Positions 5,494 through 18,794 of a stretch of DNA of 20,319 nt are shown here, piece after piece; the stretch's first letter is position 1, and each line of letters opens with the position of its first letter. This DNA is from a virus. The notes beneath the pieces were generated by a model. The model saw only the letters and a program-made list of their open reading frames with translations, was not told where the DNA came from and ran no database searches. Made by a program: the position numbers and the translations under genes. The stretch is from the IMG/VR virus record IMGVR_UViG_3300028833_003500, positions 1-20,319 of that record, one strand, 5' to 3'.

Positions 5494-7521
5494 TTAAACA
5501 ATATCATAAACGAAATAGTATGTATTTGCTTCTGTGACTGTTGGAACTTCTGTAACGTTAATTACACATGCACCAATATCAAACCCACTAGCTGTCTTTC
5601 TTAACATATAATTAGGACCATTTGTTGGGTCAAAACTTGACATAGAATTATAAGATGTAGTTGGAACATGAACAACTTTTGATTGATTTCCCTGAGACTC
5701 AACAGTAATATTACCATAAGAATTAGCACCATCAGGAGCAAAGTTAATTTGTAAAGATGTTCCATTTAAATCACCAACATTACCGCCTTGAACATTCTTT
5801 AAGAAACCACCGCCATAACTATTTACACCTAACCAGTTAGTACCTATAGCGGTTGTATCAGTAAGACTATTTACTCTGGATTGTCCCATTAAAGTAGCAG
5901 TAGTATTTACAGCTAAAATATTTTTTCCAGTAGATTTAACGATAACATTACCAGATACTGTTCCACCAGATAATGGAAGATAATTATCATCTAACCAATC
6001 TTTTGTTGGAATTACATCTGTTTTTACACCTAATTTTGTGCTTACAGATTTACCATTACCTGATAATGTTGTAGTGTCTATATTAGCTGTTGCTACGAAT
6101 GTTCTATCTGATTCTGCCTTTGAATAACATTGATCATTGAAGTCACACCAACCACTTACATTACCAGCATTATCTGTTCTTAATACTAAATAATTATTTA
6201 CTAATGAAGAATCTGGTTTAATAACATACTTTGCAAATTCAGTAGCTAATTCAGCTGCACCACTTGTTTCAGTCTTTTTATAATAATATGTTAAATCGTC
6301 AGCATCTTTCGTTATAAATCCTCGCTGACCAACCCAAGTTTCTGCTTGACTTAAAGCATTAGCGCTAGCTTCATTCACATATGTTTTCGTTGCATAATCG
6401 CCTTTTGGCTGATATGTAGTAGAAGCATCACTTGTTGTCAAGTAATTAGCCATATCAGATTTAGTTTGATATGTTTGATCAGCAGCAGTTGAATCAAGTT
6501 TTGTACTCAAAGCATTGGTAATTTCCGTTGCACCGCTTGTTTCTGTCTTTTGATAATAATTTCCACTATCTGTTAATTGAGCAACTGCTGTAGGAATATC
6601 AGATGTCAAGGCATATTCAGGAGGAACTGATGTCAAATAACCTTGATCTTTAACCCAAGTTTCTGCTTCATTATAAGCATTAGCACTTGCAGCTTCAACA
6701 TAAGCTTTAGTAGCATAATCAGCAGAAACAGAAATAGTATAATTTGAGGCAACTTTAGTAACTTCAATACCTTCTCCGCCAAGAAGATTAACAGTTGCAC
6801 CTTGTCCATCCAGACCGTTTGAAATATTAAATATATGCTGACCATCACTATCTGTAATAGTAACCTCAGTACCACCTGCCGGGAATTGTTCTGATACTGG
6901 AATGGCAGCAGTAACAACTGTCGGTGAGAAACCATCAGAACCATTAGCACCAGAAACACCACTCATAACATCGATGGATTCTGTTTTAGTAGTTCCGTCA
7001 TCATCGTAAGTAAATATAACTCTGCTACCACCTGTAATAGTTTCAGTAGAAACAGTCGGAGAAATACCATCTTTACCATTAGTTCCAGATGCGCCTTGAG
7101 CACCGCTTAATATATTAAACTGTGCAAGAGGATCACCACCACTTGTATAACTAATTGTTACTTGTGTACCGCCAGCAATAGTAGCAGTTGTAGCAGTGAT
7201 TGGAGTAGCATCATCACCTTTATCACCTTTTTCGCCAGTATCACCTTTTGTACCACTAGGACCTTGTTCACCTTGTGGACCAGCAGGACCTTGTGCACCA
7301 GAAATATAAGCAGCTTCTGGTGATGTAGCAGAAGATGCAAGTGTCCAGTGAACATAACCATCACTTTCAACACTAGGTTTCCACATTAAATCACTTTTTA
7401 CAATTGTTCCACCACCTCCACCAGCAAGAGGATAACCGCTAATAGCAGAAACACGTCCTGCTTCATCATATTCAAAGACGTTTGGTGTTATACTTGGATT
7501 TTGAATTATCATTTCTGCCAT
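5494..7521 (-). CDS. Tail fibre protein with collagen-like segment, 675 aa
   Basis: Ten uninterrupted Gly-X-Y triplets, repeated G..G..G.SPTV motifs, paired internal repeats (ASANA...AETWV..QG, YY.KTETSGA.E), C-terminal NTYYFVY. Confidence 0.75.
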   Translation of the reverse strand: MAEMIIQNPSITPNVFEYDEAGRVSAISGYPLAGGGGGTIVKSDLMWKPSVESDGYVHWTLASSATSPEAAYISGAQGPAGPQGEQGPSGTKGDTGEKGDKGDDATPITATTATIAGGTQVTISYTSGGDPLAQFNILSGAQGASGTNGKDGISPTVSTETITGGSRVIFTYDDDGTTKTESIDVMSGVSGANGSDGFSPTVVTAAIPVSEQFPAGGTEVTITDSDGQHIFNISNGLDGQGATVNLLGGEGIEVTKVASNYTISVSADYATKAYVEAASANAYNEAETWVKDQGYLTSVPPEYALTSDIPTAVAQLTDSGNYYQKTETSGATEITNALSTKLDSTAADQTYQTKSDMANYLTTSDASTTYQPKGDYATKTYVNEASANALSQAETWVGQRGFITKDADDLTYYYKKTETSGAAELATEFAKYVIKPDSSLVNNYLVLRTDNAGNVSGWCDFNDQCYSKAESDRTFVATANIDTTTLSGNGKSVSTKLGVKTDVIPTKDWLDDNYLPLSGGTVSGNVIVKSTGKNILAVNTTATLMGQSRVNSLTDTTAIGTNWLGVNSYGGGFLKNVQGGNVGDLNGTSLQINFAPDGANSYGNITVESQGNQSKVVHVPTTSYNSMSSFDPTNGPNYMLRKTASGFDIGACVINVTEVPTVTEANTYYFVYDIV
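7210..7299 (-). repeat. Collagen-like Gly-X-Y repeat (10 triplets)
   Basis: GAQ GPA GPQ GEQ GPS GTK GDT GEK GDK GDD, residues 75-104. Confidence 0.9.
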
Positions 7522-7890: not shown

Positions 7891-10800
7891 TTAATTTGTT
7901 CTTGTTCTAAAGCCAACATATGGTTTAATACCGCCAAATTTATCCATTGAACCGGCGTTTGCAAAATTATAATATGGTCTGGTAAAATCAAGTGTTGTTA
8001 TATTTTCTAAACCTAGCCATGGTTTTGGATTACCAATATCTACGGTTGTATTCGAACCCATGCCTAAACCAAGAACATTGTGCCAAGTTCCGCCATGGTT
8101 ATTAAGTTTATCAATTCTTATACATACATAATATAATTGTTCAGGATACATTGTACCTAACTCTTCTATTGGGTATAAGTTTCTTGTATTCATTACTACC
8201 TGACCACCAGCTGTCGGAATTAATCCATATTCACTTTCCCATAGCATTTTTGCTTGACCAGCAACACCTTCATAAACAGCAATAGAAACATATTCGTTAG
8301 AATCAGCATTACCGCCATTCATATATGCTTGTGTTAATGGACTAAATTCATATTCTATTGCTGGTCTAAATAAGTATGAATATTGCATACTACCAACCAA
8401 ATTTCCAACAGTATTTAAAGCACCGAATGGGATAGTTTCAGTCATACGACCATTAATAGAATTAACTAACTTATCAAATACTACTGGGTCAATTGGAGTA
8501 TCTGTAGAACCATTTGTAAGTGTAAGCTGATTATTGCTATTTAATGTGAAAATCTGATTATCATAATTAAGACCAATCTTTCTACTATCATTATTGACAG
8601 AAATTGGACTATCACCAATATAATCGTTCATGAGAACACTATTATCATTAGTGCTTACAACTTCTTCAACAATACTTGCTGTAACATTCAAATGAGCAGT
8701 TGCTGGAATTTCGCTACCGCCATAAACAACACAGTATTTTCTTGTTGGAGCAACAGTATGGTCAACTGTAATAGCAATAGTAGCATTGCTAGTTCCGACT
8801 TCTGTTGGGTAGTAATTTTGAGTAGAAACAAGTTCTGTATTGTCAGTAGCACTCAATATGAGCTTATTTAATAAGTAAGCGTGTGTTCCTGGGTTATTAT
8901 TGTCAATGGTTTCATTGATACAGAAAGTAAATTTATTTGTCGTTTCTGGTAATGTAATCAAACCATTTTCATCAACTACAATATTATGATAATTAGTTCC
9001 GTTAAATGGAATTATTGTGCCAGCAGAAACAACACTTGTGCTTCTGTAAGTATCATACATGTATTCCAAATCATTAGCACTTAAACCAACGTCCCATGTA
9101 TTTGTTTCAGCATTATATTCTGCAGAAACACCATTACTTCCAACAATTTCAGCACCAGAAATGAAGTAATAATCCTTATCGTTGTATGTTCCAGACTGTG
9201 CCATTGCATACTTTGCAGAAATATCATAGAATACAGGTTCTGGAATTTCACCCTTCTTTACGTAATCTCTTTCAACTGTTGCTGATAAATCATCGATTGT
9301 TGCAGAAACTTCATCAATAGCACCAAATAATGTTGTACAAACATCTGCAATTTGATCAACGGTATTATCAAATTCATCTTGATCAACTTTTTCGTTAAGT
9401 TCTGTAGACCAATCTTTTGCACTTAATGTAAATGTTGTCTTGTCTTCATCACGAGCTGTTGCAACATGTAATAAAGCTTCATCTTCAGAAACAACATTGT
9501 AAGAACCGCCTAATGTAGCTAGATTAACACCTTGCCACTTAGAACTATCTCCATCCTTGACTAAGAAATATGCTAAACCAGCAGCACTGATAATATCAGA
9601 AGCAGAAGTAACCCAATCACCAGAAGCAATCTGAATAGAACTTACAGAACTGATTGCAGAAAATTGTTCGATTGTTAACTTATCTTGTTTTGCACTGAGT
9701 TCATTTGTCCAGTCATAACCAGAAATACCATAATCATCAGTAATCTTAATATATTCATTAGCTGCAGTATAAGTTGGAACTACTGGAATATCTGTCTTCT
9801 TAGCATATTCACTAGAAACAGTAGCAGATAAATCGTCAAAGTGGTTATCAACTTCTGTTTTTGTATAATACTCAGTTAACTTTGATGCACTGACATATTC
9901 ACCAACAGGCTGGAATGTCTCATTAGCCCAGCTAGAAGTTTCTCTAAATTCTGCATTAACTTCAGACTTAGTATAATAATTGTCTAAGGTAGTTGCACTG
10001 ACATAATTACCAATCGGCTGGAATGTTTCATTAGCCCAAGCAGAAGTTAAATCGAACATTGCACTAACTTCAGTCTTAGTATAATACTTTAATAATTCTG
10101 CAGCTAATTCTTCATCAGTTACATAACCTTGTAAATCAATAGATGCCATACCTACGCAAACAAAGTCATATAAACTTGTTTGTGCATCTTTCTTCCAAAT
10201 CCATTCTCTATAATTATCTTTTTCTTGTAAATCTGAAACTTTAGTTAAATAAATAGTTTTTTCATTTGGAATAGAACCATCTGATAATTTACCATCGATT
10301 AAAACTGGTTTTCCTAAATTTTGTTCATCACCATTTACAATTCTAAAACCGCCAAAATTAGCAAGTAATTCATCAATTTCTTCTTGAGAATAAGTTTCAT
10401 CCTTTTTATAATAATTATCTAAAGATGCACTTGTAAGATAATCACCTTTAACTTGGAATTTACCATTTGCCCAAGCAGAAGTAGCATCAAATTGTGCATT
10501 AACATCTGAAGTTTTTGCATATGGTTCTAATGCATCAGATTTTAAATAACCTTGACCATTTACCCAATTTTGAGTAGTGGAAACAGCTGCAGCAGAAGCT
10601 TCACGTGCATATTCTTTTGTTGCATAATTACTTAAATCTGCTTCTTTCAAATAATGCTGGTTTGTAACCCAAGTAGTTGCAGAATTAACTGCTGCTGCAG
10701 AAGCATCTTTTAATTCATTATGAGAAACTACATCAGCGGTAAGATTAATCTGATGTCCAATAACCTTAATTCCATCTCCGCCATAATAAGCTTCAGCACC

Positions 10801-11178
10801 AGGAATATTATCAAAACGTTCATTGACCCATGCTGCAGAGGCATCAAATTCACGTCTTACATCAGCTGATAAAGCATATGGTTCAAGGTTTACTTGTTTT
10901 AAAAATCCTTGTTCATTAACCCAATTTTTAGAAGCATATGGGTCAAAAACAGATGGATGAATCTGTTGTGCAGAAATACCAGAAGTATTGACCTTAATCT
11001 TGTCATCAGAAATAGCAATAGTATTATCAGCAGGTGTTAATTTATTTTGCTTATTATCTATTACATTTCTTACTTTTTGACTCAATTTTAATGGTGTTCC
11101 GCTAAGACCATTACCTTCAAGGGTATCATCATGTTTTACTGAATTTATAGCAAGTACTTTACCGTTTTTTATAATCAT
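7891..11178 (-). CDS. Long tail fibre-like protein, 1095 aa
   Basis: Multiple shaft repeats (SAAWVN, W(V/A)N..Q, YY.K.EV), KQDKLT/KQNKLT motifs, beta-rich C-terminal region; late-promoter box and AAAGGA RBS upstream. Confidence 0.75.
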   Translation of the reverse strand: MIIKNGKVLAINSVKHDDTLEGNGLSGTPLKLSQKVRNVIDNKQNKLTPADNTIAISDDKIKVNTSGISAQQIHPSVFDPYASKNWVNEQGFLKQVNLEPYALSADVRREFDASAAWVNERFDNIPGAEAYYGGDGIKVIGHQINLTADVVSHNELKDASAAAVNSATTWVTNQHYLKEADLSNYATKEYAREASAAAVSTTQNWVNGQGYLKSDALEPYAKTSDVNAQFDATSAWANGKFQVKGDYLTSASLDNYYKKDETYSQEEIDELLANFGGFRIVNGDEQNLGKPVLIDGKLSDGSIPNEKTIYLTKVSDLQEKDNYREWIWKKDAQTSLYDFVCVGMASIDLQGYVTDEELAAELLKYYTKTEVSAMFDLTSAWANETFQPIGNYVSATTLDNYYTKSEVNAEFRETSSWANETFQPVGEYVSASKLTEYYTKTEVDNHFDDLSATVSSEYAKKTDIPVVPTYTAANEYIKITDDYGISGYDWTNELSAKQDKLTIEQFSAISSVSSIQIASGDWVTSASDIISAAGLAYFLVKDGDSSKWQGVNLATLGGSYNVVSEDEALLHVATARDEDKTTFTLSAKDWSTELNEKVDQDEFDNTVDQIADVCTTLFGAIDEVSATIDDLSATVERDYVKKGEIPEPVFYDISAKYAMAQSGTYNDKDYYFISGAEIVGSNGVSAEYNAETNTWDVGLSANDLEYMYDTYRSTSVVSAGTIIPFNGTNYHNIVVDENGLITLPETTNKFTFCINETIDNNNPGTHAYLLNKLILSATDNTELVSTQNYYPTEVGTSNATIAITVDHTVAPTRKYCVVYGGSEIPATAHLNVTASIVEEVVSTNDNSVLMNDYIGDSPISVNNDSRKIGLNYDNQIFTLNSNNQLTLTNGSTDTPIDPVVFDKLVNSINGRMTETIPFGALNTVGNLVGSMQYSYLFRPAIEYEFSPLTQAYMNGGNADSNEYVSIAVYEGVAGQAKMLWESEYGLIPTAGGQVVMNTRNLYPIEELGTMYPEQLYYVCIRIDKLNNHGGTWHNVLGLGMGSNTTVDIGNPKPWLGLENITTLDFTRPYYNFANAGSMDKFGGIKPYVGFRTRTN
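9841..10086 (-). repeat. 108-bp (36-aa) tandem repeat, about 2.3 copies
   Basis: YYTK(T/S)EV begins at 10086, 9978 and 9870; TS(A/S)WANETFQP(I/V)G.YVSA occurs twice, 108 bp apart. Confidence 0.85.
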
Positions 11179-11271: not shown

Positions 11272-11907
11272 ATGAAAAAAATGGCAGAAGCTATTAAAGT
11301 TATTAAAGAAAACGGTTATAAAATCATAAAGGAAGATGTTTATACATCAAATTTCCAGCTTAATCAAAGAATTAAGGAATATTTGGAAAATGATAAGTTC
11401 ATTATTGTTCTTCTCATTGGTATGTATGGACGTCAGGTAGACTTCGAAAAGCGTGGTAGACGCACAGTTTTACGTAATTTTAAAGGTTTTAACCAAACTG
11501 ATGCTGCTTACCTTTCTCCATTAGCAGAAAAAGTTCAGAATGGTCAAGTTTTGACCCCACGTGAACTTGCTTTCGTAAAGTCTTGTTTAAGAAAATACAA
11601 AAATACACAATGGTCTGAAGTTCTTAAGGAACTTGGTTATGTTAGAGAAGAAAAGAAACCAGGACGTAAGATTGAACTTTTCTTCGATGAAATGGAATTT
11701 GCTCCAATTGATGATGATGAAATCGAAACTATAGTTCCAAATTCTGAAGCAGACTATATCGCAAAGGCTTTATCTTTAGCTCAGGAAGATGGTGGTATGC
11801 TCGACGATGAAGATTTACCAAGAGCAAAACAAATCGCTGCTGACCTTTATAATCAAGGTCTTATTGCACCACAAGACGCTGCAGATAGAATTAACGAAGA
11901 ACTCTAA
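11272..11907 (+). CDS. Leader-bearing protein 1 (putative internal head protein), 211 aa
   Basis: N-terminal leader EAIKVIKENGYKIIKE; central RQ..E...T...N.KGFNQTDA.YLS..A......LTPRE...LRKY..Q segment resembles a conserved phage domain of unknown function (recalled, not searched); acidic tail. Confidence 0.6.
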   Translation: MKKMAEAIKVIKENGYKIIKEDVYTSNFQLNQRIKEYLENDKFIIVLLIGMYGRQVDFEKRGRRTVLRNFKGFNQTDAAYLSPLAEKVQNGQVLTPRELAFVKSCLRKYKNTQWSEVLKELGYVREEKKPGRKIELFFDEMEFAPIDDDEIETIVPNSEADYIAKALSLAQEDGGMLDDEDLPRAKQIAADLYNQGLIAPQDAADRINEEL

Positions 11908-11925: not shown

Positions 11926-12357
11926 ATGAACTTAAAAGAAGCTATAAAAATTTTAAAAGAAAATCATTACAAAATAAAATCTCCTTTATTAAATGAAGCT
12001 GAAATACGCTTTAATACTGCTGATGATTATCTGGCATATCGTTCTAAACTTATAAATTCTTCTTGGGCACAAAATACCGTCCAAATAGGCTGTCAAAATA
12101 CCATTCTCTCCGAAAAAGAACTAAATGCTACTGGTAAAGACATTGGCGAAATTGTCATTGAACGTTATTGTAAGGATTTTGAATCTAATAAAAAAGATCT
12201 TCAGGAATCTTGGAATTTAGGTTGGGAATCAGAAGACCCAAATCCAATGACTGAAGATACTTTTAAGAAATTAAAGAGTAAAAAAGCAGTTTATGAAGAA
12301 TGTAATGCTATTTACCAAAAAGGTGCAATAATGCATGCATTTTTAAATAATTTTTAA
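11926..12357 (+). CDS. Leader-bearing protein 2 (putative internal head protein), 143 aa
   Basis: N-terminal MNLKEAIKILKENHYKIKSPLLNE; remainder unrecognised. Confidence 0.6.
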   Translation: MNLKEAIKILKENHYKIKSPLLNEAEIRFNTADDYLAYRSKLINSSWAQNTVQIGCQNTILSEKELNATGKDIGEIVIERYCKDFESNKKDLQESWNLGWESEDPNPMTEDTFKKLKSKKAVYEECNAIYQKGAIMHAFLNNF

Positions 12358-12370
12358 TTAAGGTTTTAAA

Positions 12371-12979
12371 ATGAACTTATTAGAAGCAAGAGAAATACTC
12401 AAAAAGAAAGGTTACACTGTTCATAGACTTAACGAATGTGGCGGTTTTAGCGGCGGTTGCGGCGGAAGCAGCAGTTATAGTTCTAGCTGTGGCAGTAGTG
12501 GTTGCGGTTCCAGCTATAGCTCTGGATGTGGTAGTAGCAGTAGTTATGGTGGTGGATGTGGTACAATATCCAGAAGCGTCAGAGTAGGTTGCGGAACTTA
12601 TATTTCTGATAGTTGTCATAGTAGTGGTTGTGGTGGTTATTATTATGACGATGATGAAGATGAAACACCAGAAACTATTATTGTCAAAGGTAAAAGATAT
12701 GAATTTGCTGGATATAATTCATATTATGGTTGTGCAGAATATACTAATTCCAGAACTGGTAAAACTATACTTGATGTAACTAATAATGAAAGACCATCTA
12801 AATTTTCAAAAATTATAAGTCTTGCTCGTAAATTAAGAATTAGTGAAGTAAGAACAGTTGAAATAATTGAAACTTTATATGAATCTGGTATTAGTCGTGA
12901 AATTGCATATAATTTACTTGCTAAATTAAATATGCTACCAGATAAATTACTTAGAATGCCAATAACACATGTTAAATAA
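12371..12979 (+). CDS. Leader-bearing protein 3 with Gly/Ser/Cys-rich repeat region, 202 aa
   Basis: Leader MNLLEAREILKKKGYTVHRLNE, then 9 Cys in residues 23-87 (8 followed by Gly), an acidic DDDEDE linker and a globular C-terminal part; AAGG RBS. Confidence 0.7.
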   Translation: MNLLEAREILKKKGYTVHRLNECGGFSGGCGGSSSYSSSCGSSGCGSSYSSGCGSSSSYGGGCGTISRSVRVGCGTYISDSCHSSGCGGYYYDDDEDETPETIIVKGKRYEFAGYNSYYGCAEYTNSRTGKTILDVTNNERPSKFSKIISLARKLRISEVRTVEIIETLYESGISREIAYNLLAKLNMLPDKLLRMPITHVK

Positions 12980-12995
12980 CTAAGTTTAAATAATA

Positions 12996-13030
12996 TAAAA
13001 AGAGTCAAGAAAACCTTGACTCTTTCTTTT
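12996..13030. terminator. Bidirectional intrinsic terminator
   Basis: AAGAGTCAAG-AAAAC-CTTGACTCTT with flanking A and T runs, between convergent genes. Confidence 0.8.
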
Positions 13031-13230
13031 TAACCACATGTAGTAGGACCACCACATCTCATATAAAATCCACAACTATACGATACCCATTGTGGAGGAT
13101 TTCCAAAATGTGCATTGGCATAGTCATAATAACCACCAGTTCCACATCCTACATATCCACCACAACCAGTAATTTTGAGTTGTTTCATACCTGCGGTTTT
13201 AAGTTTTTGTCTTAATTCAGTTAATGTCAT
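13030..13230 (-). CDS. 66-aa leader + Cys-Gly core peptide (candidate RiPP-like precursor)
   Basis: GAAGGT RBS; ATGA overlap with the radical SAM stop; all five Cys are followed by Gly; the leader aligns without gaps to 12371-12979. Confidence 0.7.
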   Translation of the reverse strand: MTLTELRQKLKTAGMKQLKITGCGGYVGCGTGGYYDYANAHFGNPPQWVSYSCGFYMRCGGPTTCG

Positions 13231-14156
13231 AATATACCTTCTTCACCATTCTTTTTCAATAACCAATCAATATATACTGGATCATTTTCATATTCAGATA
13301 TATCATCTGTCAATGAATAATCACCAAATATCCATCTTTCAAATTCTGTATTTGTTACTAGATCCCAGTCATCATAAACTTGACCGTCAATAGTAATCAA
13401 AATATCATTTACAAATATCTTATTACCATAAACTACTTTAGAATGTTCCAAACCTCTATGATAACTGATTAATGTATCACCGTCCCAGAATCTATCGTCA
13501 TTACAAACCATACAACCACCAGAACTTTCATATTCATATTCAAGAATTAATTTCTCAAATACATCATCTCTGTTCTTTAAAGTATCTTTCGTAATATTCC
13601 TATAATCTGCTCTGATACAGATAGAAACATTTTCTAATGGTCTATAAGGTTCTATAAACTGTTTAAATTCTTCTAGGTTAAATTCCTTAGAAAGAACAAC
13701 ATTCAATTTAATATGTTTCTTAATTAAATGTGCAAAAATATTGATAGGCAAGACATCTTCATAGAATTTCTGATGCATATGTCTTGAAATATTCAAACCG
13801 CCGATTTTATCATTCTTGTTAATAAAATCAATCATTGTCATAATTTTCGCAGTTTCTATAGTTCCAGGAATTTCTGCAAATGTAGGAAATGTCGTATTGA
13901 TATAAACTGGTTTCTTCATAGCATCAATAAGAATCTGACATTTCTCAATATCTGCTAATGGTTCTCCACCTGTTAATACAAATTCTTCAATTAACGGATT
14001 TTCATTAAGTTTTTTGATTTGTGCAAGAATTGCATCAATATCACAAGTTCTTTGTTTATACATCTGCTTAGATGTACAGAACTTGCAATGATTATTACAA
14101 TCCCATGGCACAAAAATCGTGCAACTTAAATTACTTCTCCCTTTAATATATCTCAT
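13227..14156 (-). CDS. Radical SAM enzyme of unknown specificity, 309 aa
   Basis: CxxxCxxC (CNNHCKFC), LTGGEP, YINTT and LNISRH core motifs; an extra CxxC (GGCMVC); C-terminal ILITIDGQVY hairpin. Confidence 0.9.
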   Translation of the reverse strand: MRYIKGRSNLSCTIFVPWDCNNHCKFCTSKQMYKQRTCDIDAILAQIKKLNENPLIEEFVLTGGEPLADIEKCQILIDAMKKPVYINTTFPTFAEIPGTIETAKIMTMIDFINKNDKIGGLNISRHMHQKFYEDVLPINIFAHLIKKHIKLNVVLSKEFNLEEFKQFIEPYRPLENVSICIRADYRNITKDTLKNRDDVFEKLILEYEYESSGGCMVCNDDRFWDGDTLISYHRGLEHSKVVYGNKIFVNDILITIDGQVYDDWDLVTNTEFERWIFGDYSLTDDISEYENDPVYIDWLLKKNGEEGIL

Positions 14157-14159
14157 ATT

Positions 14160-14810
14160 TTATACAAGTTTAATTAATCTATAATACTTATCACTATCGT
14201 AGAATCGATCAGCAATCGCATACTTATTATTTTCTTCATCTTCTGCTAAAACGATTCCACCATCAAACCTACTAGTTCCAGAATATCCAATTAATGCCAT
14301 TGGTGTATCTTCATCAAACTCAGCAACACTCATTTTAATAACACCATTAACAAGATATTCGGTGTTATCAGTTGAAACATTAATAAATGGAGTTGAAAAT
14401 GCGTCAAGTTCTTCTAATTCTTTCTTAAATGCATTGTTAATAAGAATATAATTACCTGCACAACGGCGAGTACTTGTTCTAATAGAATTACATTCCTTCA
14501 TTAAATGAGTTAATAATACGCCACAACGTTCTTCTTTAGAAGCTGCAGACTCTGGATCTTTGTGTATTTCAATAACCTTAGCCACATCCATACATGCATG
14601 AATTACATCTAATTCTTTCTTACTTTCATCACTTGCATCTTTCCAATCTTTTTCATGGATAAGTTGTCTTTCAAGACCCAATGTTAATTCTGGACGGTCA
14701 GCTTCTCTACCATCGAATAACAGTTCTCTTGGAATATATCTTAAAACGGATGCACAGTTTTTAAATAATCCGTCTTTCTTCTGGACTTTAATTAAGTCTT
14801 TAATTGTCAT
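14160..14810 (-). CDS. Truncated gp23-like major capsid protein paralogue A (216 aa from ATG 14810)
   Basis: Segments matching T4 gp23 as recalled: DLIKVQ, LGLERQLI, LLTHLMKECNSIRTSTRRCAGNYILIN, LIGYSGTSRFDGGIV, KYYRLIKL. The start at 14810 has an AAGGT RBS and aligns with the start of paralogue B. Confidence 0.7.
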   Translation of the reverse strand: MTIKDLIKVQKKDGLFKNCASVLRYIPRELLFDGREADRPELTLGLERQLIHEKDWKDASDESKKELDVIHACMDVAKVIEIHKDPESAASKEERCGVLLTHLMKECNSIRTSTRRCAGNYILINNAFKKELEELDAFSTPFINVSTDNTEYLVNGVIKMSVAEFDEDTPMALIGYSGTSRFDGGIVLAEDEENNKYAIADRFYDSDKYYRLIKLV

Positions 14811-15312
14811 TTTGTAACCTTTGTCTTTCATCTCTTGTTAATAGCCTTTGATTTGTGCTTCCCCTAAACTTTAAATTCAAATCTCTCTGTTCAAGAATAA
14901 ATGGTCCGTCAACCAGAATATCAACCATTTCTAATAAAGAAGAAGTTAACCCATTTATATTTTGACACTGACCTTCTAATAAATCTTTTTCATAAATATA
15001 ACCAGTAAATAACCAAACATTTTTACCAGGATATGCACGTTTGAAATTAGCAATGAGCTTATAGATTTCTGCTTGGTTTTCTTTTTCCATTGGTTCTCCA
15101 CCAAGAACTGTCAAACCAGCAATATATGGTTTATTACAAGCTTCAATAATTTCATTTTCTGTAATTTCTGTATATGGTTGACCATAATCAAAATTCCAGG
15201 TTTCTGGATTAAAACACCCTTTACAATGATTTCTACAACCTGAAACAAAAAGTGTTACTCGACAACCGTCACCATCGACAATACTCATTGGATCAATTTT
15301 ACTGTAATTCAT
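14800..15312 (-). CDS. nrdG: Anaerobic ribonucleotide reductase activating enzyme (radical SAM)
   Basis: SIVDGDGCRVTLFVSGCRNHCKGCFNPETW, LTVLGGEP, DILVDGPF, FRGSTNQR. Confidence 0.95.
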   Translation of the reverse strand: MNYSKIDPMSIVDGDGCRVTLFVSGCRNHCKGCFNPETWNFDYGQPYTEITENEIIEACNKPYIAGLTVLGGEPMEKENQAEIYKLIANFKRAYPGKNVWLFTGYIYEKDLLEGQCQNINGLTSSLLEMVDILVDGPFILEQRDLNLKFRGSTNQRLLTRDERQRLQNDN

Positions 15313-15958
15313 CTTTTACCCTTAAAAGTCTATAATAATTCTCTGTTCCTTCCATATCGGTATTAATTGAAAAATGAGTCTCGGTAGGACTAAGTGCTGC
15401 AATAGCACCACATACACACGAATTATTAGAATGATATGCCATAATAGCTTCTGGATAATTTGAATAATCATCAAAGTCCATTTTAAAAGCATCTCTACCG
15501 ACAATTTTTAATACACCTGGAGCAGATTCAGTAATAAATTGACAATTCATAAAACCAGATGTTAAGTCATGTAATAAATCATACATCTTAGTATTCAATA
15601 CAATAATATTACCAAAGCCTTGATGTGTTGCAATAGCAATATCATTACAAAGTTGTATTATCTTAGTAACAATCGTTGATGCACGTTCAATTCCGGAATC
15701 GTGCCAAAAAGGATCATTACCTATTGGGTTTTTCATTTCTGTAACTTTTGCAACCTGCTTACATGCTAAAACGATTTCTTTATATAAGTCTGAAGAATTA
15801 CTACATAAAGGTTGCCAATTTGGCGTATGACCATATTTAGGTTCAAAACTACCATATTCATAACCTTCTCTTATATCAGGTTTATATCGCATTACAGTTG
15901 GTAAACTATGTTCAAAATCAATTCCTCTTTGAACACCGACAAGATCCATTATACTCAT
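15299..15958 (-). CDS. Truncated gp23-like major capsid protein paralogue B, 219 aa
   Basis: MSIMDLVGVQ, IVTKIIQLCNDIAIATHQGFGNIIVLN, APGVL, FDDY and NYYRLLRV match gp23 segments as recalled; clear paralogue of 14160-14810. Confidence 0.7.
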   Translation of the reverse strand: MSIMDLVGVQRGIDFEHSLPTVMRYKPDIREGYEYGSFEPKYGHTPNWQPLCSNSSDLYKEIVLACKQVAKVTEMKNPIGNDPFWHDSGIERASTIVTKIIQLCNDIAIATHQGFGNIIVLNTKMYDLLHDLTSGFMNCQFITESAPGVLKIVGRDAFKMDFDDYSNYPEAIMAYHSNNSCVCGAIAALSPTETHFSINTDMEGTENYYRLLRVKDELQ

Positions 15959-16248
15959 TTTTTACTTTCCTTATCATATTTCAGTTTTAACCCGAGAAGG
16001 ATAAATATAAGTATAGTTGCCAAAGTATAATTTACATATTGCGGATATTGCCACATTCCACTTATATAATTAGTATAGAAAATATAAGCAGCACTACATA
16101 AATTACCGATAATTGACAAAATAATAAAGAAAATACTTATATCACCTGTCGACTTAGTTTTATAAGCTTTAATAACTTGTGGTAATGAACAAACTGCAAA
16201 AGCACCAGCTCCACAAAAACCACAAATTAACATTAAAGTATCTAACAT
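15955..16248 (-). CDS. PQ-loop / SemiSWEET-type three-helix membrane transporter, 97 aa
   Basis: SLPQVIKAYKTKSTGDIS signature and three hydrophobic segments; start placed at ATG 16248 behind an AAAGGA RBS rather than at the TTG at 16293. Confidence 0.85.
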   Translation of the reverse strand: MLDTLMLICGFCGAGAFAVCSLPQVIKAYKTKSTGDISIFFIILSIIGNLCSAAYIFYTNYISGMWQYPQYVNYTLATILIFILLGLKLKYDKESKK

Positions 16249-16265
16249 TCGCTTCCTTTTATTTA

Positions 16266-16293
16266 AAGATAGAAAAATCATACGGTTTTTCAA
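16266..16293 (-). promoter_or_regulatory. Possible sigma70-like promoter overlapping the nrdD terminator
   Basis: TTGAAA, 16 nt, TATCTT, ahead of the PQ-loop RBS. Confidence 0.35.
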
Positions 16294-16322: not shown

Positions 16323-18794
16323 TTAAATATTATGACGGTCTCTCAATTCTGCTAATTTTCCATCATTCCATGACTTGAAAATAGTCTTCTTAGGAGAACC
16401 AGTCAAATATCCGGTAATTCTTCTAACACGAATAATCTCATCTTCATTCTTGTTACCGCAACATGGACATTCATTATTGATGATTCCATGGAAATGGCAC
16501 TTAGTACAAGTATCACTATCAAATGTACAAGTGAAATATCCTAAGTCACCATCATACATAGCATCAATAGTTGCCTTGACTGCTTCAAGATTCTTAGACA
16601 AGTCACCGTTCAACTTATAATAGAAGATATGACCAGCATTTGTAATCTTGTGATAAGGTGCTTCCATCTTAATCTTGTTTTCAAGAGTAGTTTCCAAAGA
16701 ATAATCAAGCATGTGGCTATTTGTATAATAACCCTTACCGAAGACTCTCTGTAAATCTACATCAGCAAGCTTCTTTTCGTTCTGAAAAAGATTTTTATCG
16801 ATGTTAGCAAAACGACCTGCAACTGCTTCAGCCGGTGTAGCGAAACAAGACCAGTTCAAATGAGTTTCCTTCTGTGTCTTATCAACAAATTCACGAATAG
16901 TCTTTACAATAGAGAAAGCATAATCATCAATTTCATGGTCGACACCATAAGTCTTACCTGTCAAGAGTAACATGGTTTCAGCAAGACCGACGTAACCGAT
17001 TGACAACGAAGCCTGCTTAAGAACTTCACCAATCTTATCAGTAACTTCATGCGGTTGGTCATCAGATGTGAGATAAAGACCCTGTTGCATAGTGAACGGG
17101 AAATTCTCATATGTCTTGTTAGAAATCAATGCAAATCTGTCAAGCAAACTTCCCTTTGCATCTTCAAGCATTTCAGCAAGCTTTTCAAAGAAAATAGTCT
17201 TACGTTCTTGTTCATCTTTAGCTGCGATATGAGCTTCAATAGCAAGTCTAGGAAGGTTAATTGTATGGAATGCAAAGTTACCTCTACCAGTTGTCTGTTC
17301 AGCACCATTGATATTACCAATAACTCTAGTTCTACAACCCATAGTAGAAATAGTTGTATTTTCAATGAGCTTCTTCAACTTTAACTTATTTCCAGAAATT
17401 TCTTCAATTTCCCAATAATCACCTTGACCTACATCATACTGATAAACAAACTTATCAAACTTCTGATCTTGCATTGGAATAATTGTTGCTTCATCTTTAC
17501 CACGAACCTTAACACCAATAGCATTTTCAAAAATTTCAACTTCCTTAGTTTCATACTTGATGTATGGCTTATTGAAGGAACTATCGACCTTTACAAAGTT
17601 CGGGTAGAATCTACGAGCAAGACACTTAATAGAATCGAGATACAAATCATAGTTAGGATCTTCTGGATTCTTTGTATAACCTTTCATCAACTTGAAAATC
17701 AAGATTGGGAAAATTGCTGTCAATCCATCGCCGAGACCTTCCATCTGAGACTTAATAAGATTCTTGCTAATCATACGGCCACAATTAGAAGTATTAAGAC
17801 CGAAGTTCAAAGAACTGAATGGAACTTGGTTTCCTGAACGAGACTGTAAAGAATTCAAATTACCAATAAGACCTTCCATAGCCTGATGTGTATCATCATC
17901 TGTCTTCTGAATTGCCTTGATAACACAAATCTTAGGGAACTTAGTATAAAGAAGTGCAGAAGGCCAGTTCATAGAAGCTGTTGCAACTTCATCAAGATTG
18001 GTCATTTCTTCATGATCTGGATTATATTCTATATATCTTTCTAATTCTTCCTTAAGATTCTTTCTAAATGAAATATCGACAAATGGTGCTAAATCAAAAT
18101 CGAGATTATCATCAGCGATACCACCATATTGCTGGTTGGACTGAAGCTGAAGGATAACTGCTGTCAATGCTGCTGCAGTCTGGATTGACTTCGGAGAACG
18201 TAAGAAACCAGTTCCGGAGTCAAAACCATTCTTCAACAACTTTCCAACTGGAGCAAACAAGCAGTTGAATGTCAAATTATACTGGTTAAGGTCATGGATA
18301 TGTAAATGCCCGTCCTTATGTTCCTGTGCATACTTTCTGTTGATGTTATTCAACAGATTATACATCTTGTTCGTTTCAGATGCAATCTTACCGTATGTTC
18401 CAGCAGGAGTAGCACCAGACTCATTTGCATTGTCTCTTAAAATATTCGAACTTTTAATGTCAGATTCTGTAATTTCCTTAATGGTCTTTACAATTTCTGA
18501 TTTTGTTTCACGTGCACGGTTACGTTCGTCTCTATATAAAATAAATGCCTTGGCAACTGTTCCGAATCCGCTATTCATTAATGTTTTTTCAATAACATTC
18601 TGAATATCTTCAACTTTTGCTGACTTAGCATCATTTGCGGAAATCTTCTCGACTACTTCATCAACTAATTGGTCTATACCTTCTTCTGTATATTTTTCAT
18701 TTATTGATTTAAATGCATTTTCTATGGCTGTATATACTTTTGCAATATTGAATTTTCGTCTGCGATTATCTCGCTTAATTACGTTTTTAATCAT
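16323..18794 (-). CDS. nrdD: Anaerobic (class III) ribonucleoside-triphosphate reductase
   Basis: N-terminal ATP-cone (VIKRD...FN..KV), HIHDL, NC, QSRSGNQVPFSSLNFG, MGCRT, TPAE, YTNS, Zn site CxxC...CxxC, glycyl-radical loop RRITGYL. Confidence 0.97.
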   Translation of the reverse strand: MIKNVIKRDNRRRKFNIAKVYTAIENAFKSINEKYTEEGIDQLVDEVVEKISANDAKSAKVEDIQNVIEKTLMNSGFGTVAKAFILYRDERNRARETKSEIVKTIKEITESDIKSSNILRDNANESGATPAGTYGKIASETNKMYNLLNNINRKYAQEHKDGHLHIHDLNQYNLTFNCLFAPVGKLLKNGFDSGTGFLRSPKSIQTAAALTAVILQLQSNQQYGGIADDNLDFDLAPFVDISFRKNLKEELERYIEYNPDHEEMTNLDEVATASMNWPSALLYTKFPKICVIKAIQKTDDDTHQAMEGLIGNLNSLQSRSGNQVPFSSLNFGLNTSNCGRMISKNLIKSQMEGLGDGLTAIFPILIFKLMKGYTKNPEDPNYDLYLDSIKCLARRFYPNFVKVDSSFNKPYIKYETKEVEIFENAIGVKVRGKDEATIIPMQDQKFDKFVYQYDVGQGDYWEIEEISGNKLKLKKLIENTTISTMGCRTRVIGNINGAEQTTGRGNFAFHTINLPRLAIEAHIAAKDEQERKTIFFEKLAEMLEDAKGSLLDRFALISNKTYENFPFTMQQGLYLTSDDQPHEVTDKIGEVLKQASLSIGYVGLAETMLLLTGKTYGVDHEIDDYAFSIVKTIREFVDKTQKETHLNWSCFATPAEAVAGRFANIDKNLFQNEKKLADVDLQRVFGKGYYTNSHMLDYSLETTLENKIKMEAPYHKITNAGHIFYYKLNGDLSKNLEAVKATIDAMYDGDLGYFTCTFDSDTCTKCHFHGIINNECPCCGNKNEDEIIRVRRITGYLTGSPKKTIFKSWNDGKLAELRDRHNI

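Follow-up and report, generated by a model that had tools for sequence, protein, structure and literature searches.

A radical SAM gene overlapping a short Cys-Gly open reading frame

The window analyzed here, that is, the complete stretch of 20,319 nt of the virus record IMGVR_UViG_3300028833_003500, is a 20-kb fragment of the genome of a giant phage of sheep and goat guts. It contains a gene on the minus strand (13227–14156) that encodes a radical SAM enzyme of 309 aa with a CX3CX2C motif (C20/C24/C27) and a second motif, GGCMVC (C215/C218). The TGA stop codon of this gene (13229–13227) overlaps in an ATGA configuration with the ATG start codon (13230–13228) of a 66-aa open reading frame on the same strand (13030–13230). 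A Shine-Dalgarno-like AGAAGG box (13237–13242, minus strand) lies 6 nt upstream of this ATG and within the end of the enzyme gene, as read directly from the sequence, an arrangement of translational coupling. All five Cys residues of the 66-aa peptide are followed by Gly, and the peptide ends in CG. Given that Gly makes up about 20% of the peptide, the probability of five of five by chance is about 3e-4. A bidirectional intrinsic-terminator hairpin at 12997–13027, recognized as terminator-like sites on both strands with stems of 11–14 bp followed by T runs, separates this transcription unit from a convergent one. The latter contains a gene on the plus strand (12371–12979) for a protein of 202 aa with ten Cys residues, eight of which are in CG motifs. 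This protein consists of an N-terminal tag of 22 aa ending in LNE, a Cys-Gly/Ser/Tyr array (residues 23–88, 12437–12634, plus strand) that contains the eight CG motifs and is predicted to be disordered, an acidic stretch, and a C-terminal domain. Thus, everything that an earlier note, made from the sequence alone, had described at this locus is present.

The peptide gene differs from its copy at locus L006 at four sites, all of which are synonymous. Orthologous but fast-evolving peptides at two further loci (L002 and L005) retain the CG motifs. Contigs from RNA libraries of three studies cover the peptide gene, but this is weak evidence and is not counted as proof of expression, because the contigs may derive from contaminating DNA and show neither strand nor level. 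The earlier note had also claimed that the N-terminus of the peptide aligns without gaps, through CGG, to that of the 202-aa protein. This alignment is real (10 of 25 residues identical), but only weakly significant (permutation p = 0.002). A profile of the N-terminal tag of this phage (see below) scored the 202-aa protein at 27.6 bits, but the peptide at only 0.7 bits.

Co-occurrence and fusion of the enzyme with Cys-Gly sequences

To assess whether the pairing of the enzyme with a Cys-Gly sequence is more than chance, which the earlier note had named as a test, we collected loci encoding homologs and applied one fixed rule for the presence of a CG-rich partner. Of 42 loci of the enzyme subfamily with the extra CxxC motif, 34 had such a partner, which was adjacent in 27 and fused to the enzyme in 7 cases. 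By contrast, only 4 of 142 loci of the sister subfamily lacking CxxC passed the rule, and all four were spurious, being Arg-rich off-frame ORFs in high-GC DNA (Fisher p = 5e-25). The association holds for 17 of 21 lineages at 70% identity and for 11 of 12 at 50%. Four lineages (L013, L015/L017, L036, and L037) show no partner within reach. The partners occur downstream, upstream, convergent, or fused, in DNA of 26–63% GC. CxxC and the CG partner co-vary across the family. The genomic context of the sister subfamily in Oscillospiraceae consists of housekeeping genes and gave no clue to function.

An exhaustive profile search yielded 205 clusters (50% identity) at E ≤ 1e-30. Among the best 150 cluster representatives, 113 have the CxxC..YHR signature, and 82 of these (73%) carry a C-terminally fused tail with at least two Cys residues. 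Of the 82 tails, 64 end exactly in Cys, 6 in CG, and 5 in CGG. The enzyme and the peptide of the window, taken together, align colinearly with fused relatives (sequences P0019–P0023), so that the 66-aa peptide is the split-off equivalent of their C-terminal tail, and the “leader” proposed in the earlier note corresponds to their linker.

In 31 partner sequences, 142 of 184 Cys residues are followed by Gly and 12 are C-terminal, compared with an overall Gly content of 14.7%. Only the CG motif is conserved, whereas the number of Cys residues (2–11) and their spacing vary. There are cases of in-frame repeat gain (locus L010 compared with L002) and loss (L007), and the length of the array in the 202-aa protein differs between orthologs. 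Several free-standing partners have no leader and start directly with MCG. In three lineages, two different CG proteins accompany one enzyme. Proteins equivalent to the convergent 202-aa protein are present at L002 and at L014/L038. In the complete relative of the phage (G001, 415,750 bp), 3 of 3,334 ORFs passed the CG rule, and the two genuine ones, one of which corresponds to the 202-aa protein, flank the enzyme gene.

Family assignment and predicted structure of the enzyme

The enzyme belongs to the radical SAM superfamily. It scored 40.4 bits with the Pfam model Radical_SAM (PF04055, 4.4e-10; cut-off 29.5 bits), and the only other Pfam match was Fer4_12 at 1.6e-7. In an alignment of 23 sequences, C20/C24/C27 and the SAM-binding motif TGGEP are invariant, as is a second site comprising C215-x-x-C218 followed by Y232-H233-R234-G235. 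Outside of the SAM cluster, C215 and C218 are the only invariant Cys residues. A SPASM domain was not detected (no hit at E ≤ 0.1), and no RiPP recognition element (RRE) was found by Pfam in the enzyme or its neighbors. The AF2 model of the enzyme (pLDDT 89.9) starts directly with the radical SAM core. No NCBIfam model reached its cut-off. The scores were 26.8 bits for MoaA (TIGR02666, cut-off 284), 21.8 for QueE (TIGR03963, 260), 19.1 for viperin (NF038283, 180), 16.2 for YydG (TIGR04078, 300), and 19.5 for the CXXX-repeat maturase (TIGR04115, 350), as well as 32.6 and 23.7 for the NrdG/PFL-type activating enzymes (TIGR02495, 131.15, and TIGR02491, 126.1). The best NCBIfam hit was NrdG2 at 4.7e-8. 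A genuine NrdG is encoded two genes upstream, at 14800–15312. The enzyme gene lies in an nrdD/nrdG operon in this window, but this context is not conserved in other phages.

Structural alignment of the model (VIA) gave Z scores of 14–15 with GDGT-MAS, SuiB, MoaA, and ChlB, and further neighbors include viperin, SkfB, CteB, and PqqE, as well as PFL-AE (Z 12.2). The nearest folds are thus those of the peptide-modifying SPASM/Twitch enzymes and MoaA, although the nucleotide enzymes MoaA and viperin are equally close. The best sequence match in the PDB is the peptide epimerase YydG/EpeE (5e-5). A prediction of the complex of enzyme and peptide gave weak support only, with a score of 0.54 compared with 0.01 for the best control. 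That mark was reached by 58 of 80 solved complexes and by 2 of 110 mismatched pairs, but at 0.60 or under by only 7 of the 80 solved complexes and by both mismatches. The runs shared at least 29% of the contacts, the pLDDT of the partner was at least 39, and the peptide's own fold is uncertain. For the 202-aa protein, the AF2 model was too poor for a fold search (pLDDT 41.7), with values of 21–28 in the CG region.

Other searches were negative. A megablast search of the region against a phage collection found no match, and a tblastn search with the enzyme found only two unannotated faecal phage fragments at 29–33% identity. Pfam, PHROGs, and NCBIfam searches with the 66-aa peptide, the 202-aa protein, and ten other CG partners gave nothing meaningful, and the ESM Atlas returned only generic names. 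Neither a protease nor an exporter gene is present in the window or recurs in related loci. Full-text literature searches on radical SAM enzymes in phages, on RiPPs, and on Cys-Gly proteins found no description of this family, and a study on the mining of phage RiPPs does not cover it (PMC11118758).

An N-terminal tag shared by proteins of the phage lineage

The tag of the 202-aa protein is shared by at least 18 proteins of the complete relative G001, one of which is an SLT transglycosylase. At the N-termini it ends mostly in (I/L)xE, but it also occurs internally and in tandem. G001 encodes a gp21-type prohead protease (Peptidase_S77, 6.9e-29) and a gp23-type capsid protein (Gp23, 8.3e-70). 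A search with the tag profile in three other jumbo-phage records that carry the enzyme gave one unrelated hit. The tag is therefore lineage-specific and not a feature of the enzyme family. The prohead-protease family was found in only 2–3 of 5 other records, so that there is no general link between the enzyme and T4-like heads.

Discussion

The results described above indicate that the 309-aa protein belongs to a previously uncharacterized radical SAM subfamily, which is defined by the canonical CX3CX2C cluster motif plus a second, incomplete metal or cluster site (CxxC followed about 14 residues later by YHRG) in a Twitch-like C-terminal beta domain. We consider it somewhat more likely than not that this subfamily modifies flexible Cys-Gly arrays, in cis or in trans. 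In this view, the array is the enzyme's own C-terminal tail in most members, whereas in this phage the tail has been split off as a translationally coupled 66-aa peptide, and a second array sits on the neighboring 202-aa protein, a probable second target or partner. We propose that a Cys thiolate of a (G/S)-C-G motif docks at the open site of the second cluster, that the 5'-deoxyadenosyl radical abstracts a hydrogen from the unhindered neighboring backbone, most plausibly from the Gly C-alpha, and that a Cys-centered modification follows. Our first choice is an S-C-alpha (sactionine-type) thioether, possibly between adjacent residues. The gene pair, the motifs, the coupling and fusion throughout the family, and the non-membership in known families rest on the analyses presented here, whereas the role of the array as a substrate, the entire chemistry including any thioether product, and any cleavage, packaging, or other role in the virion are inferred. 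Furthermore, the second site has only two invariant Cys residues plus a His, so that an auxiliary [4Fe-4S] cluster is not assured, and a self-modified enzyme tail has no obvious use.

The interpretation given in the earlier note was partly supported. The functional coupling of the enzyme with Cys-Gly sequences is borne out by co-occurrence, fusion, and genome-wide exclusivity, the suggestion of a further substrate agrees with the probable role of the 202-aa protein, and the enzyme belongs to none of the known small-molecule families tested. However, the proposed leader-plus-core architecture of a RiPP is not the rule in this family. The suggested link to virion packaging is plausible for the 202-aa protein, which carries the genome-wide tag in a phage with a T4-type prohead protease, but it is not shown for the peptide.

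A possible, though less likely, alternative is that the Cys-Gly array is not the substrate but a functional arm of the enzyme, the thiols of which ligate or replenish the second cluster, relay reducing equivalents, or serve as consumable sulfur donors, one Cys per turnover. The real substrate would then be an unidentified small molecule, nucleotide, or nucleic acid, and in this phage the arm would be supplied in trans by the peptide. The prevalence of C-terminal fusions ending exactly in Cys fits such an arm at least as well as a substrate. This positional constraint is typical of swinging-arm tails, such as the C-terminal Cys pair of RNR R1, the GCUG end of TrxR, the CC tail of MerA, and the C-terminal Cys of HypE. 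The co-variation of CxxC and CG, the structural proximity to MoaA and viperin, and the nrdD/nrdG context in this window are also compatible with this view. On the other hand, the number and spacing of the Cys residues are hypervariable, arrays also occur in the N-terminal part of larger proteins that do not end in Cys (the 202-aa protein and the partners at L014, L125, and L128), two different CG proteins accompany one enzyme in three lineages, the nrd context is not conserved in other phages, and no candidate gene for a second substrate co-occurs.

A classical sactipeptide- or ranthipeptide-type RiPP, as first proposed, in which a leader-guided maturase cross-links the core and a free bioactive peptide, for example an antibacterial, is released after removal of the leader, is disfavored. 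The presence of a Cys-rich small ORF translationally coupled to a radical SAM gene and the structural neighbors SuiB, SkfB, CteB, PqqE, and ChlB would fit. However, the SPASM Cys set, an RRE, a protease, and an exporter were not found in the searches described above, the NCBIfam maturase models scored far below their cut-offs, most relatives have the “core” fused to the enzyme, and several free partners have no leader.

A glycyl-radical-type activase is very unlikely. Such an enzyme would abstract the C-alpha hydrogen of the Gly after Cys to generate a peptide-borne glycyl or thiyl radical, or to trigger backbone cleavage or amidation at Gly, without forming a cross-link. The N-terminal half does resemble activases (Fer4_12, NrdG2, and PFL-AE), Gly is the invariant neighbor of Cys, and some NrdD proteins have a Cys just before the radical Gly. 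However, the scores are far below the family cut-offs, the arrays are predicted to be disordered, so that nothing would shield a radical, an RVxG-type motif is absent, and activases lack the extra CxxC beta domain, which here co-varies with the partner. Formation of thiazoles as in microcin B17, which the Gly/Cys/Ser-rich composition might suggest, was rejected because no YcaO or dehydrogenase gene is nearby, and formylglycine formation because the C/S-x-P-x-R motif is absent. That the enzyme is an ordinary small-molecule enzyme (MoaA-, QueE-, or viperin-like) next to unrelated or non-coding CG ORFs is, despite the similarity of its fold to MoaA and viperin, refuted for practical purposes by the co-occurrence and fusion data, and it is also contradicted by the scores far below the cut-offs and by the purely synonymous changes in the peptide gene compared with L006.

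Radical SAM enzymes that act on Cys-rich peptides are a main source of new peptide chemistry, and all characterized thioether-forming ones use SPASM/Twitch domains with full Cys sets, usually together with an RRE. The subfamily described here is compact (about 270–310 residues without the tail) and comprises at least 205 clusters at 50% identity, and the members examined lie mainly on large gut and rumen phage contigs. In addition, it carries its presumed substrate on its own C-terminus, which makes it unusually easy to test, with one gene and one mass spectrum. If the array is a substrate, the family defines a new minimal recognition logic (a Cys-Gly dipeptide without a leader) and probably a new cross-link. 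If it is an arm, the enzyme would be a radical SAM enzyme with a built-in multi-Cys relay or consumable sulfur source, a design of which we know no example. Because one carrier in this phage lineage bears the tag of a T4-like head system, it is a testable idea that giant phages chemically modify proteins that they package. A more far-reaching possibility, which remains doubtful on present evidence, is a new radical post-translational modification specific to Cys-Gly motifs, for example adjacent-residue S-C-alpha rings or inter-motif thioethers, installed by a minimal, SPASM-less enzyme in cis on its own tail or in trans on tagged proteins destined for the capsid interior. This would amount to an enzymatic chemical maturation of phage internal proteins, a class distinct from sacti- and ranthipeptides.

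Comparison with known systems

The tag of the 202-aa protein recalls the internal proteins of T4 (IPI–III and Alt), the capsid-targeting sequence (CTS) of which is cut by gp21 at (L/I)xE. The tag of 22 aa ends in LNE, and the relative has the gp23-type capsid and gp21-type protease genes, but the tag has no sequence similarity to the T4 CTS, and its putative cleavage and packaging are inferred by analogy. For the fused architecture only, an analogy is provided by enzymes with a fused or self-supplied substrate, such as the BURP-domain peptide cyclases and the suicide sulfur donors THI4 and LarE. In these, the reactive residues are part of the enzyme polypeptide, so that several motifs could give several turnovers, but the folds and chemistries are unrelated.

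For the proposed chemistry, the sactionine of the enteropeptins, a thiomorpholine ring between Cys and its neighboring residue, is a precedent showing that a radical SAM enzyme can join a Cys sulfur to the C-alpha of the adjacent residue (PMC12395415), which would explain an obligatory small neighbor such as Gly. The resemblance is only a chemical analogy, because the acceptor in enteropeptin is the residue before Cys (N-methylornithine), and the enzyme family is different, with a single site and a classical leader peptide. EpeE/YydG, which forms epipeptides, is, like the enzyme described here, a compact radical SAM enzyme without an RRE. It modifies peptides and abstracts a backbone C-alpha hydrogen, but its substrate is unrelated, and epimerization has not been shown here.

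MoaA (GTP 3',8-cyclase), the prototype of the Twitch-type radical SAM enzymes, is the best Foldseek hit (7e-7, TM 0.53) and aligns with Z 14.6 over residues 1–279. The C-terminal CX2C followed about 14 residues later by a third conserved ligand-type residue resembles the CX2CX13C site of MoaA, the free Fe of which binds the substrate. However, the third residue is His233 instead of Cys, a molybdopterin context is absent, and the partner is a polypeptide. The ranthipeptide/SCIFF and sactipeptide maturases (CteB, PapB, SkfB, and AlbA; radical SAM-SPASM) share the genetic coupling of a radical SAM enzyme with a Cys-rich polypeptide and are near structural neighbors (Z 12–13.5). The second cluster site may have an open position that could accept a substrate thiolate. 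Substrate Cys residues ligate an auxiliary cluster in CteB and PapB, and one report points in the same direction (PMC10177961). In contrast to these maturases, which have a SPASM domain with a set of seven Cys residues binding two auxiliary clusters, the enzyme described here has only CxxC plus His and no RRE, protease, or exporter, its target motif would be Cys-Gly in a Gly/Ser/Tyr low-complexity array that is usually fused to the enzyme itself, and the family is carried mainly by large gut phages.

Organization and origin of the locus

The minus strand carries a single operon that consists of nrdD (16323-18794), a PQ-loop protein, a 219-aa protein, nrdG (14800-15312), a 223-aa protein, the 309-aa radical SAM gene (13227-14156) and a 66-aa ORF (13030-13230). 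The TGA stop codon of the radical SAM gene overlaps the ATG of the peptide, and an AGAAGG box is located 6 nt upstream. A hairpin at 12997-13027, which scores as a terminator on both strands, separates the operon from three convergent plus-strand genes encoding proteins of 211, 143 and 202 aa. The enzyme has a CX3CX2C motif (C20/C24/C27) and a GGCMVC motif (C215/C218). All five Cys residues of the peptide are followed by Gly, and the peptide ends in CG. The 202-aa protein contains ten Cys, eight of them in CG, in a Ser/Gly/Tyr-rich stretch directly after a 22-residue N-terminus. Thus, what the earlier note had described, a radical SAM gene overlapping by ATGA a small Cys-Gly ORF next to a convergent 202-aa protein, is accurate.

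Some further features of the neighborhood were recorded. The 112-aa PQ-loop membrane protein (15955-16293, minus strand; 3e-13) sits inside the nrdD-nrdG operon and is conserved there in relatives (locus L001). Two proteins of about 220 aa flanking nrdG (14160-14831 and 15299-15958, minus strand) give weak hits to the middle or C-terminal part of the T4 major capsid protein family (Gp23: 8.9e-6 and 1e-3). In one close relative (L007:1927-3840), an extra gene for a 637-aa Cys-rich, zinc-finger-like protein is inserted between nrdD and the downstream genes, whereas this gene is absent from the window. Two large minus-strand genes, 5494-7521 and 7891-11178, encode proteins that look like tail fibers, one of 675 aa with a collagen-like repeat and one of 1095 aa with internally repeated sequence, and are transcribed divergently from the tagged-protein genes described below.

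The window, a 20-kb fragment of a virus record, has an 89%-identical copy in a complete 415,750-bp phage genome with terminal repeats (hereafter G001). G001 encodes a gp23-family capsid protein (8e-70) and a gp21-family prohead protease (7e-29). The pair of proteins with weak Gp23 similarity also scores in G001, at 148-150 kb, far from the true capsid gene at 86 kb. Near-identical DNA was found in sheep, goat and bovine gut or rumen metagenomes from 13 studies.

The enzyme does not belong to a known family

In the enzyme, Pfam detects only Radical_SAM and Fer4_12, and every NCBIfam model scores far below its cut-off: NrdG2 32.6 against 131 bits, MoaA 26.8 against 284, QueE 21.8 against 260, viperin 19.1 against 180, YydG 16.2 against 300, and the CXXX-repeat maturase 19.5 against 350. 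A confident AF2 model (pLDDT 89.9) is closest to MoaA, SuiB, EpeE and viperin-like enzymes by Foldseek. By VIA-align, it is closest to GDGT-MAS, SuiB, MoaA and ChlB (Z 14-15), followed by viperin, SkfB, PqqE, EpeE, anSME, PFL-AE and CteB (Z 12-13.7), over residues 1-280. Therefore, in the predicted structure, the C-terminal beta domain that holds CxxC corresponds to the Twitch/SPASM region of those enzymes. Among solved structures, the best sequence match is YydG/EpeE (5e-5). In 23 homologs, the invariant residues outside the SAM cluster include C215, C218 and Y232-H233-R234-G235, that is, CX2C followed by a His about 14 residues later. This arrangement resembles the three-ligand auxiliary site of MoaA, but it is not a full SPASM Cys set.

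Pairing of the enzyme with Cys-Gly sequences

To assess whether this pairing is real, we collected loci from viral, genome and metagenome collections and applied one rule to all of them. A partner was defined as any ORF within 1.5 kb with at least 3 CG in a 60-residue window and at least 60% of its Cys followed by Gly or C-terminal, or as an enzyme tail with at least 2 Cys ending in Cys. In the subfamily with CxxC..YHR, 27 loci had an adjacent partner, 7 a fused one and 8 none. In the sister subfamily without CxxC, 4 of 142 loci scored, and all four were Arg-rich off-frame ORFs in high-GC DNA (Fisher p = 5e-25). After clustering, 17 of 21 lineages at 70% identity and 11 of 12 at 50% have a partner. 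Of the cases without a partner, two narrowly miss the rule (L039, L129), and in one the contig ends 626 nt downstream of the enzyme gene (L037). The sister subfamily (L040-L114, L131-L197; for example L043:3989-4876), with proteins of about 295 aa that often end in FEPYDL..., is mostly chromosomal in Oscillospiraceae. It is a widespread stand-alone gene there and in other Clostridia (one sequence is listed in 258 index blocks), sits among housekeeping genes, and is also uncharacterized.

The partners are located downstream, upstream (L123, L124, L128), convergent (the window, L002, L014/L038) or fused, in DNA of 26-63% GC. Across 31 partners, 142 of 184 Cys are followed by Gly and 12 are C-terminal, and the residue before Cys is Gly in 48% and Ser in 14%. 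In the complete genome G001, 3 of 3334 ORFs pass the CG rule, and the two genuine ones flank the enzyme gene. In two related jumbo phages, the leaderless CG peptide is followed by a second, different radical SAM gene (L016:7900-8811 and L018:7500-8423; Radical_SAM 3e-8 and 1.3e-14). The array may meet more than one radical enzyme there.

The fused form is the rule. An exhaustive profile search of 1.84 billion cluster representatives found 1577 relatives at E <= 1e-3 and 205 at E <= 1e-30. Of the best 150, 113 have CxxC..YHR, and 82 of these (73%) carry a C-terminal tail with at least 2 Cys (median 4 Cys, 63 residues). Sixty-four of the 82 end exactly in Cys, six in CG and five in CGG, and 209 of their roughly 300 non-terminal Cys are followed by Gly. 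The enzyme and the peptide of the window, joined end to end, align colinearly with fused relatives of 58-62% identity (P0019-P0023), such that the N-terminal part of the peptide falls on their linker and its CG part on their Cys-rich end. Therefore, the 66-aa gene is best read as a split-off enzyme tail, with a one-base frame difference at the ATGA junction, and the "leader" proposed in the earlier note corresponds to the linker.

Several comparisons bear on whether the peptide gene is real. It differs from its copy in locus L006 at four sites, all synonymous, whereas the enzyme has 34 amino-acid changes. Against L001 and L007, the five replacements cluster at residues 47-56, between CG motifs. 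Orthologous peptides next to enzymes of 67-73% identity are only about 36% identical but keep every aligned CG and the terminal CG. The CG arrays also change length in frame between close relatives: the peptide of L010 (6912-7166) has an in-frame duplication of a 19-residue unit compared with that of L002 (6913-7110), and the ortholog of the 202-aa protein in L007 (7164-7646) has a deletion of about 43 residues in its array compared with the window (12371-12979). Contigs from RNA libraries of three studies cover the peptide gene although, being contigs, they do not prove transcription.

An N-terminal tag shared by unrelated phage proteins

The 202-aa and 143-aa proteins start with a motif of roughly 20 residues (consensus MNLxEAKxxLKxNGY, usually ending in (I/L)xE) that heads at least 18 otherwise unrelated proteins scattered over G001. 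Its occurrences were recorded at 11272-11907, 11926-12357 and 12371-12436 of the window, and in G001 (loci L198-L218) at about 49, 67, 129, 152-153, 177, 197, 207-208, 216-217 and 272-274 kb. One of the tagged proteins is an SLT transglycosylase that resembles internal virion proteins. The motif also occurs internally and in tandem, including in two proteins encoded near the gp23-like capsid and gp21-like protease genes. Given the presence of a gp21-type protease, a T4-like targeting and cleavage tag is a reasonable, although inferred, reading.

The earlier note had aligned the N-termini of the peptide and the 202-aa protein and suggested that the same leader may link modification to virion packaging. 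The pairwise ungapped similarity of the two N-termini has a permutation p of 0.002. However, a profile of 16 tags scores the 202-aa protein at 27.6 bits and the 66-aa peptide at only 0.7 bits. The tag was not found as a family in three other jumbo phages that carry the enzyme, and several partners have no N-terminal extension at all and start with MCG. Therefore, the tag belongs to this phage lineage and not to the enzyme system. It may route the 202-aa protein into the capsid, whereas for the peptide this remains conjecture.

Possible mechanism and alternative explanations

The analyses described above show a tight evolutionary coupling between the CxxC site and Cys-Gly arrays that are predicted to be disordered (pLDDT 21-28). 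The rest is inferred, namely, that the array is the substrate, the chemistry including any thioether product, and the presence of the 202-aa protein in the virion. We infer that a Cys thiolate of the array meets the second metal or cluster site, as substrate Cys does in CteB and PapB-type enzymes, and that the deoxyadenosyl radical attacks the unhindered neighboring backbone. The obligatory Gly would fit hydrogen abstraction at Gly C-alpha, or a ring between adjacent residues, and the enteropeptins are a precedent for an adjacent-residue sactionine (PMC12395415). A complex prediction of enzyme plus peptide gave weak support only, with a score of 0.54 against a best control of 0.01. That mark was reached by 58 of 80 solved complexes and 2 of 110 mismatched pairs, but at 0.60 or under by only 7 of the 80 and by both mismatches; the runs share at least 29% of contacts, and partner pLDDT is at least 39.

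On present evidence, we consider it somewhat more likely than not that the array is the substrate. A thioether is the most likely single chemistry, although overall it is less likely than not. The alternative that survives best, albeit less likely, is that the array is a functional arm, that is, a ligand, a relay or a consumable sulfur donor, serving a reaction on something else; the dominance of fused tails ending in Cys is the main argument for it. A classical secreted RiPP appears improbable, and glycyl-radical-type activation slightly more so. A known small-molecule enzyme is the least likely possibility. Taken together, the interpretation in the earlier note, a candidate RiPP-like modification system with a leader and a Cys-Gly core, was only partly supported.

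Relation to known systems

Neither a paper nor a curated model describing this family was found in the literature and family-model searches. The present locus contributes the split, translationally coupled form, its colinearity with fused relatives, the second, tagged carrier in a T4-like head background, and the negative result for the "leader" of the peptide. The general combination of a radical SAM enzyme with a Cys-rich polypeptide is known from other systems, in contrast to the enzyme architecture, the target motif and the self-fusion of this family, which are not.
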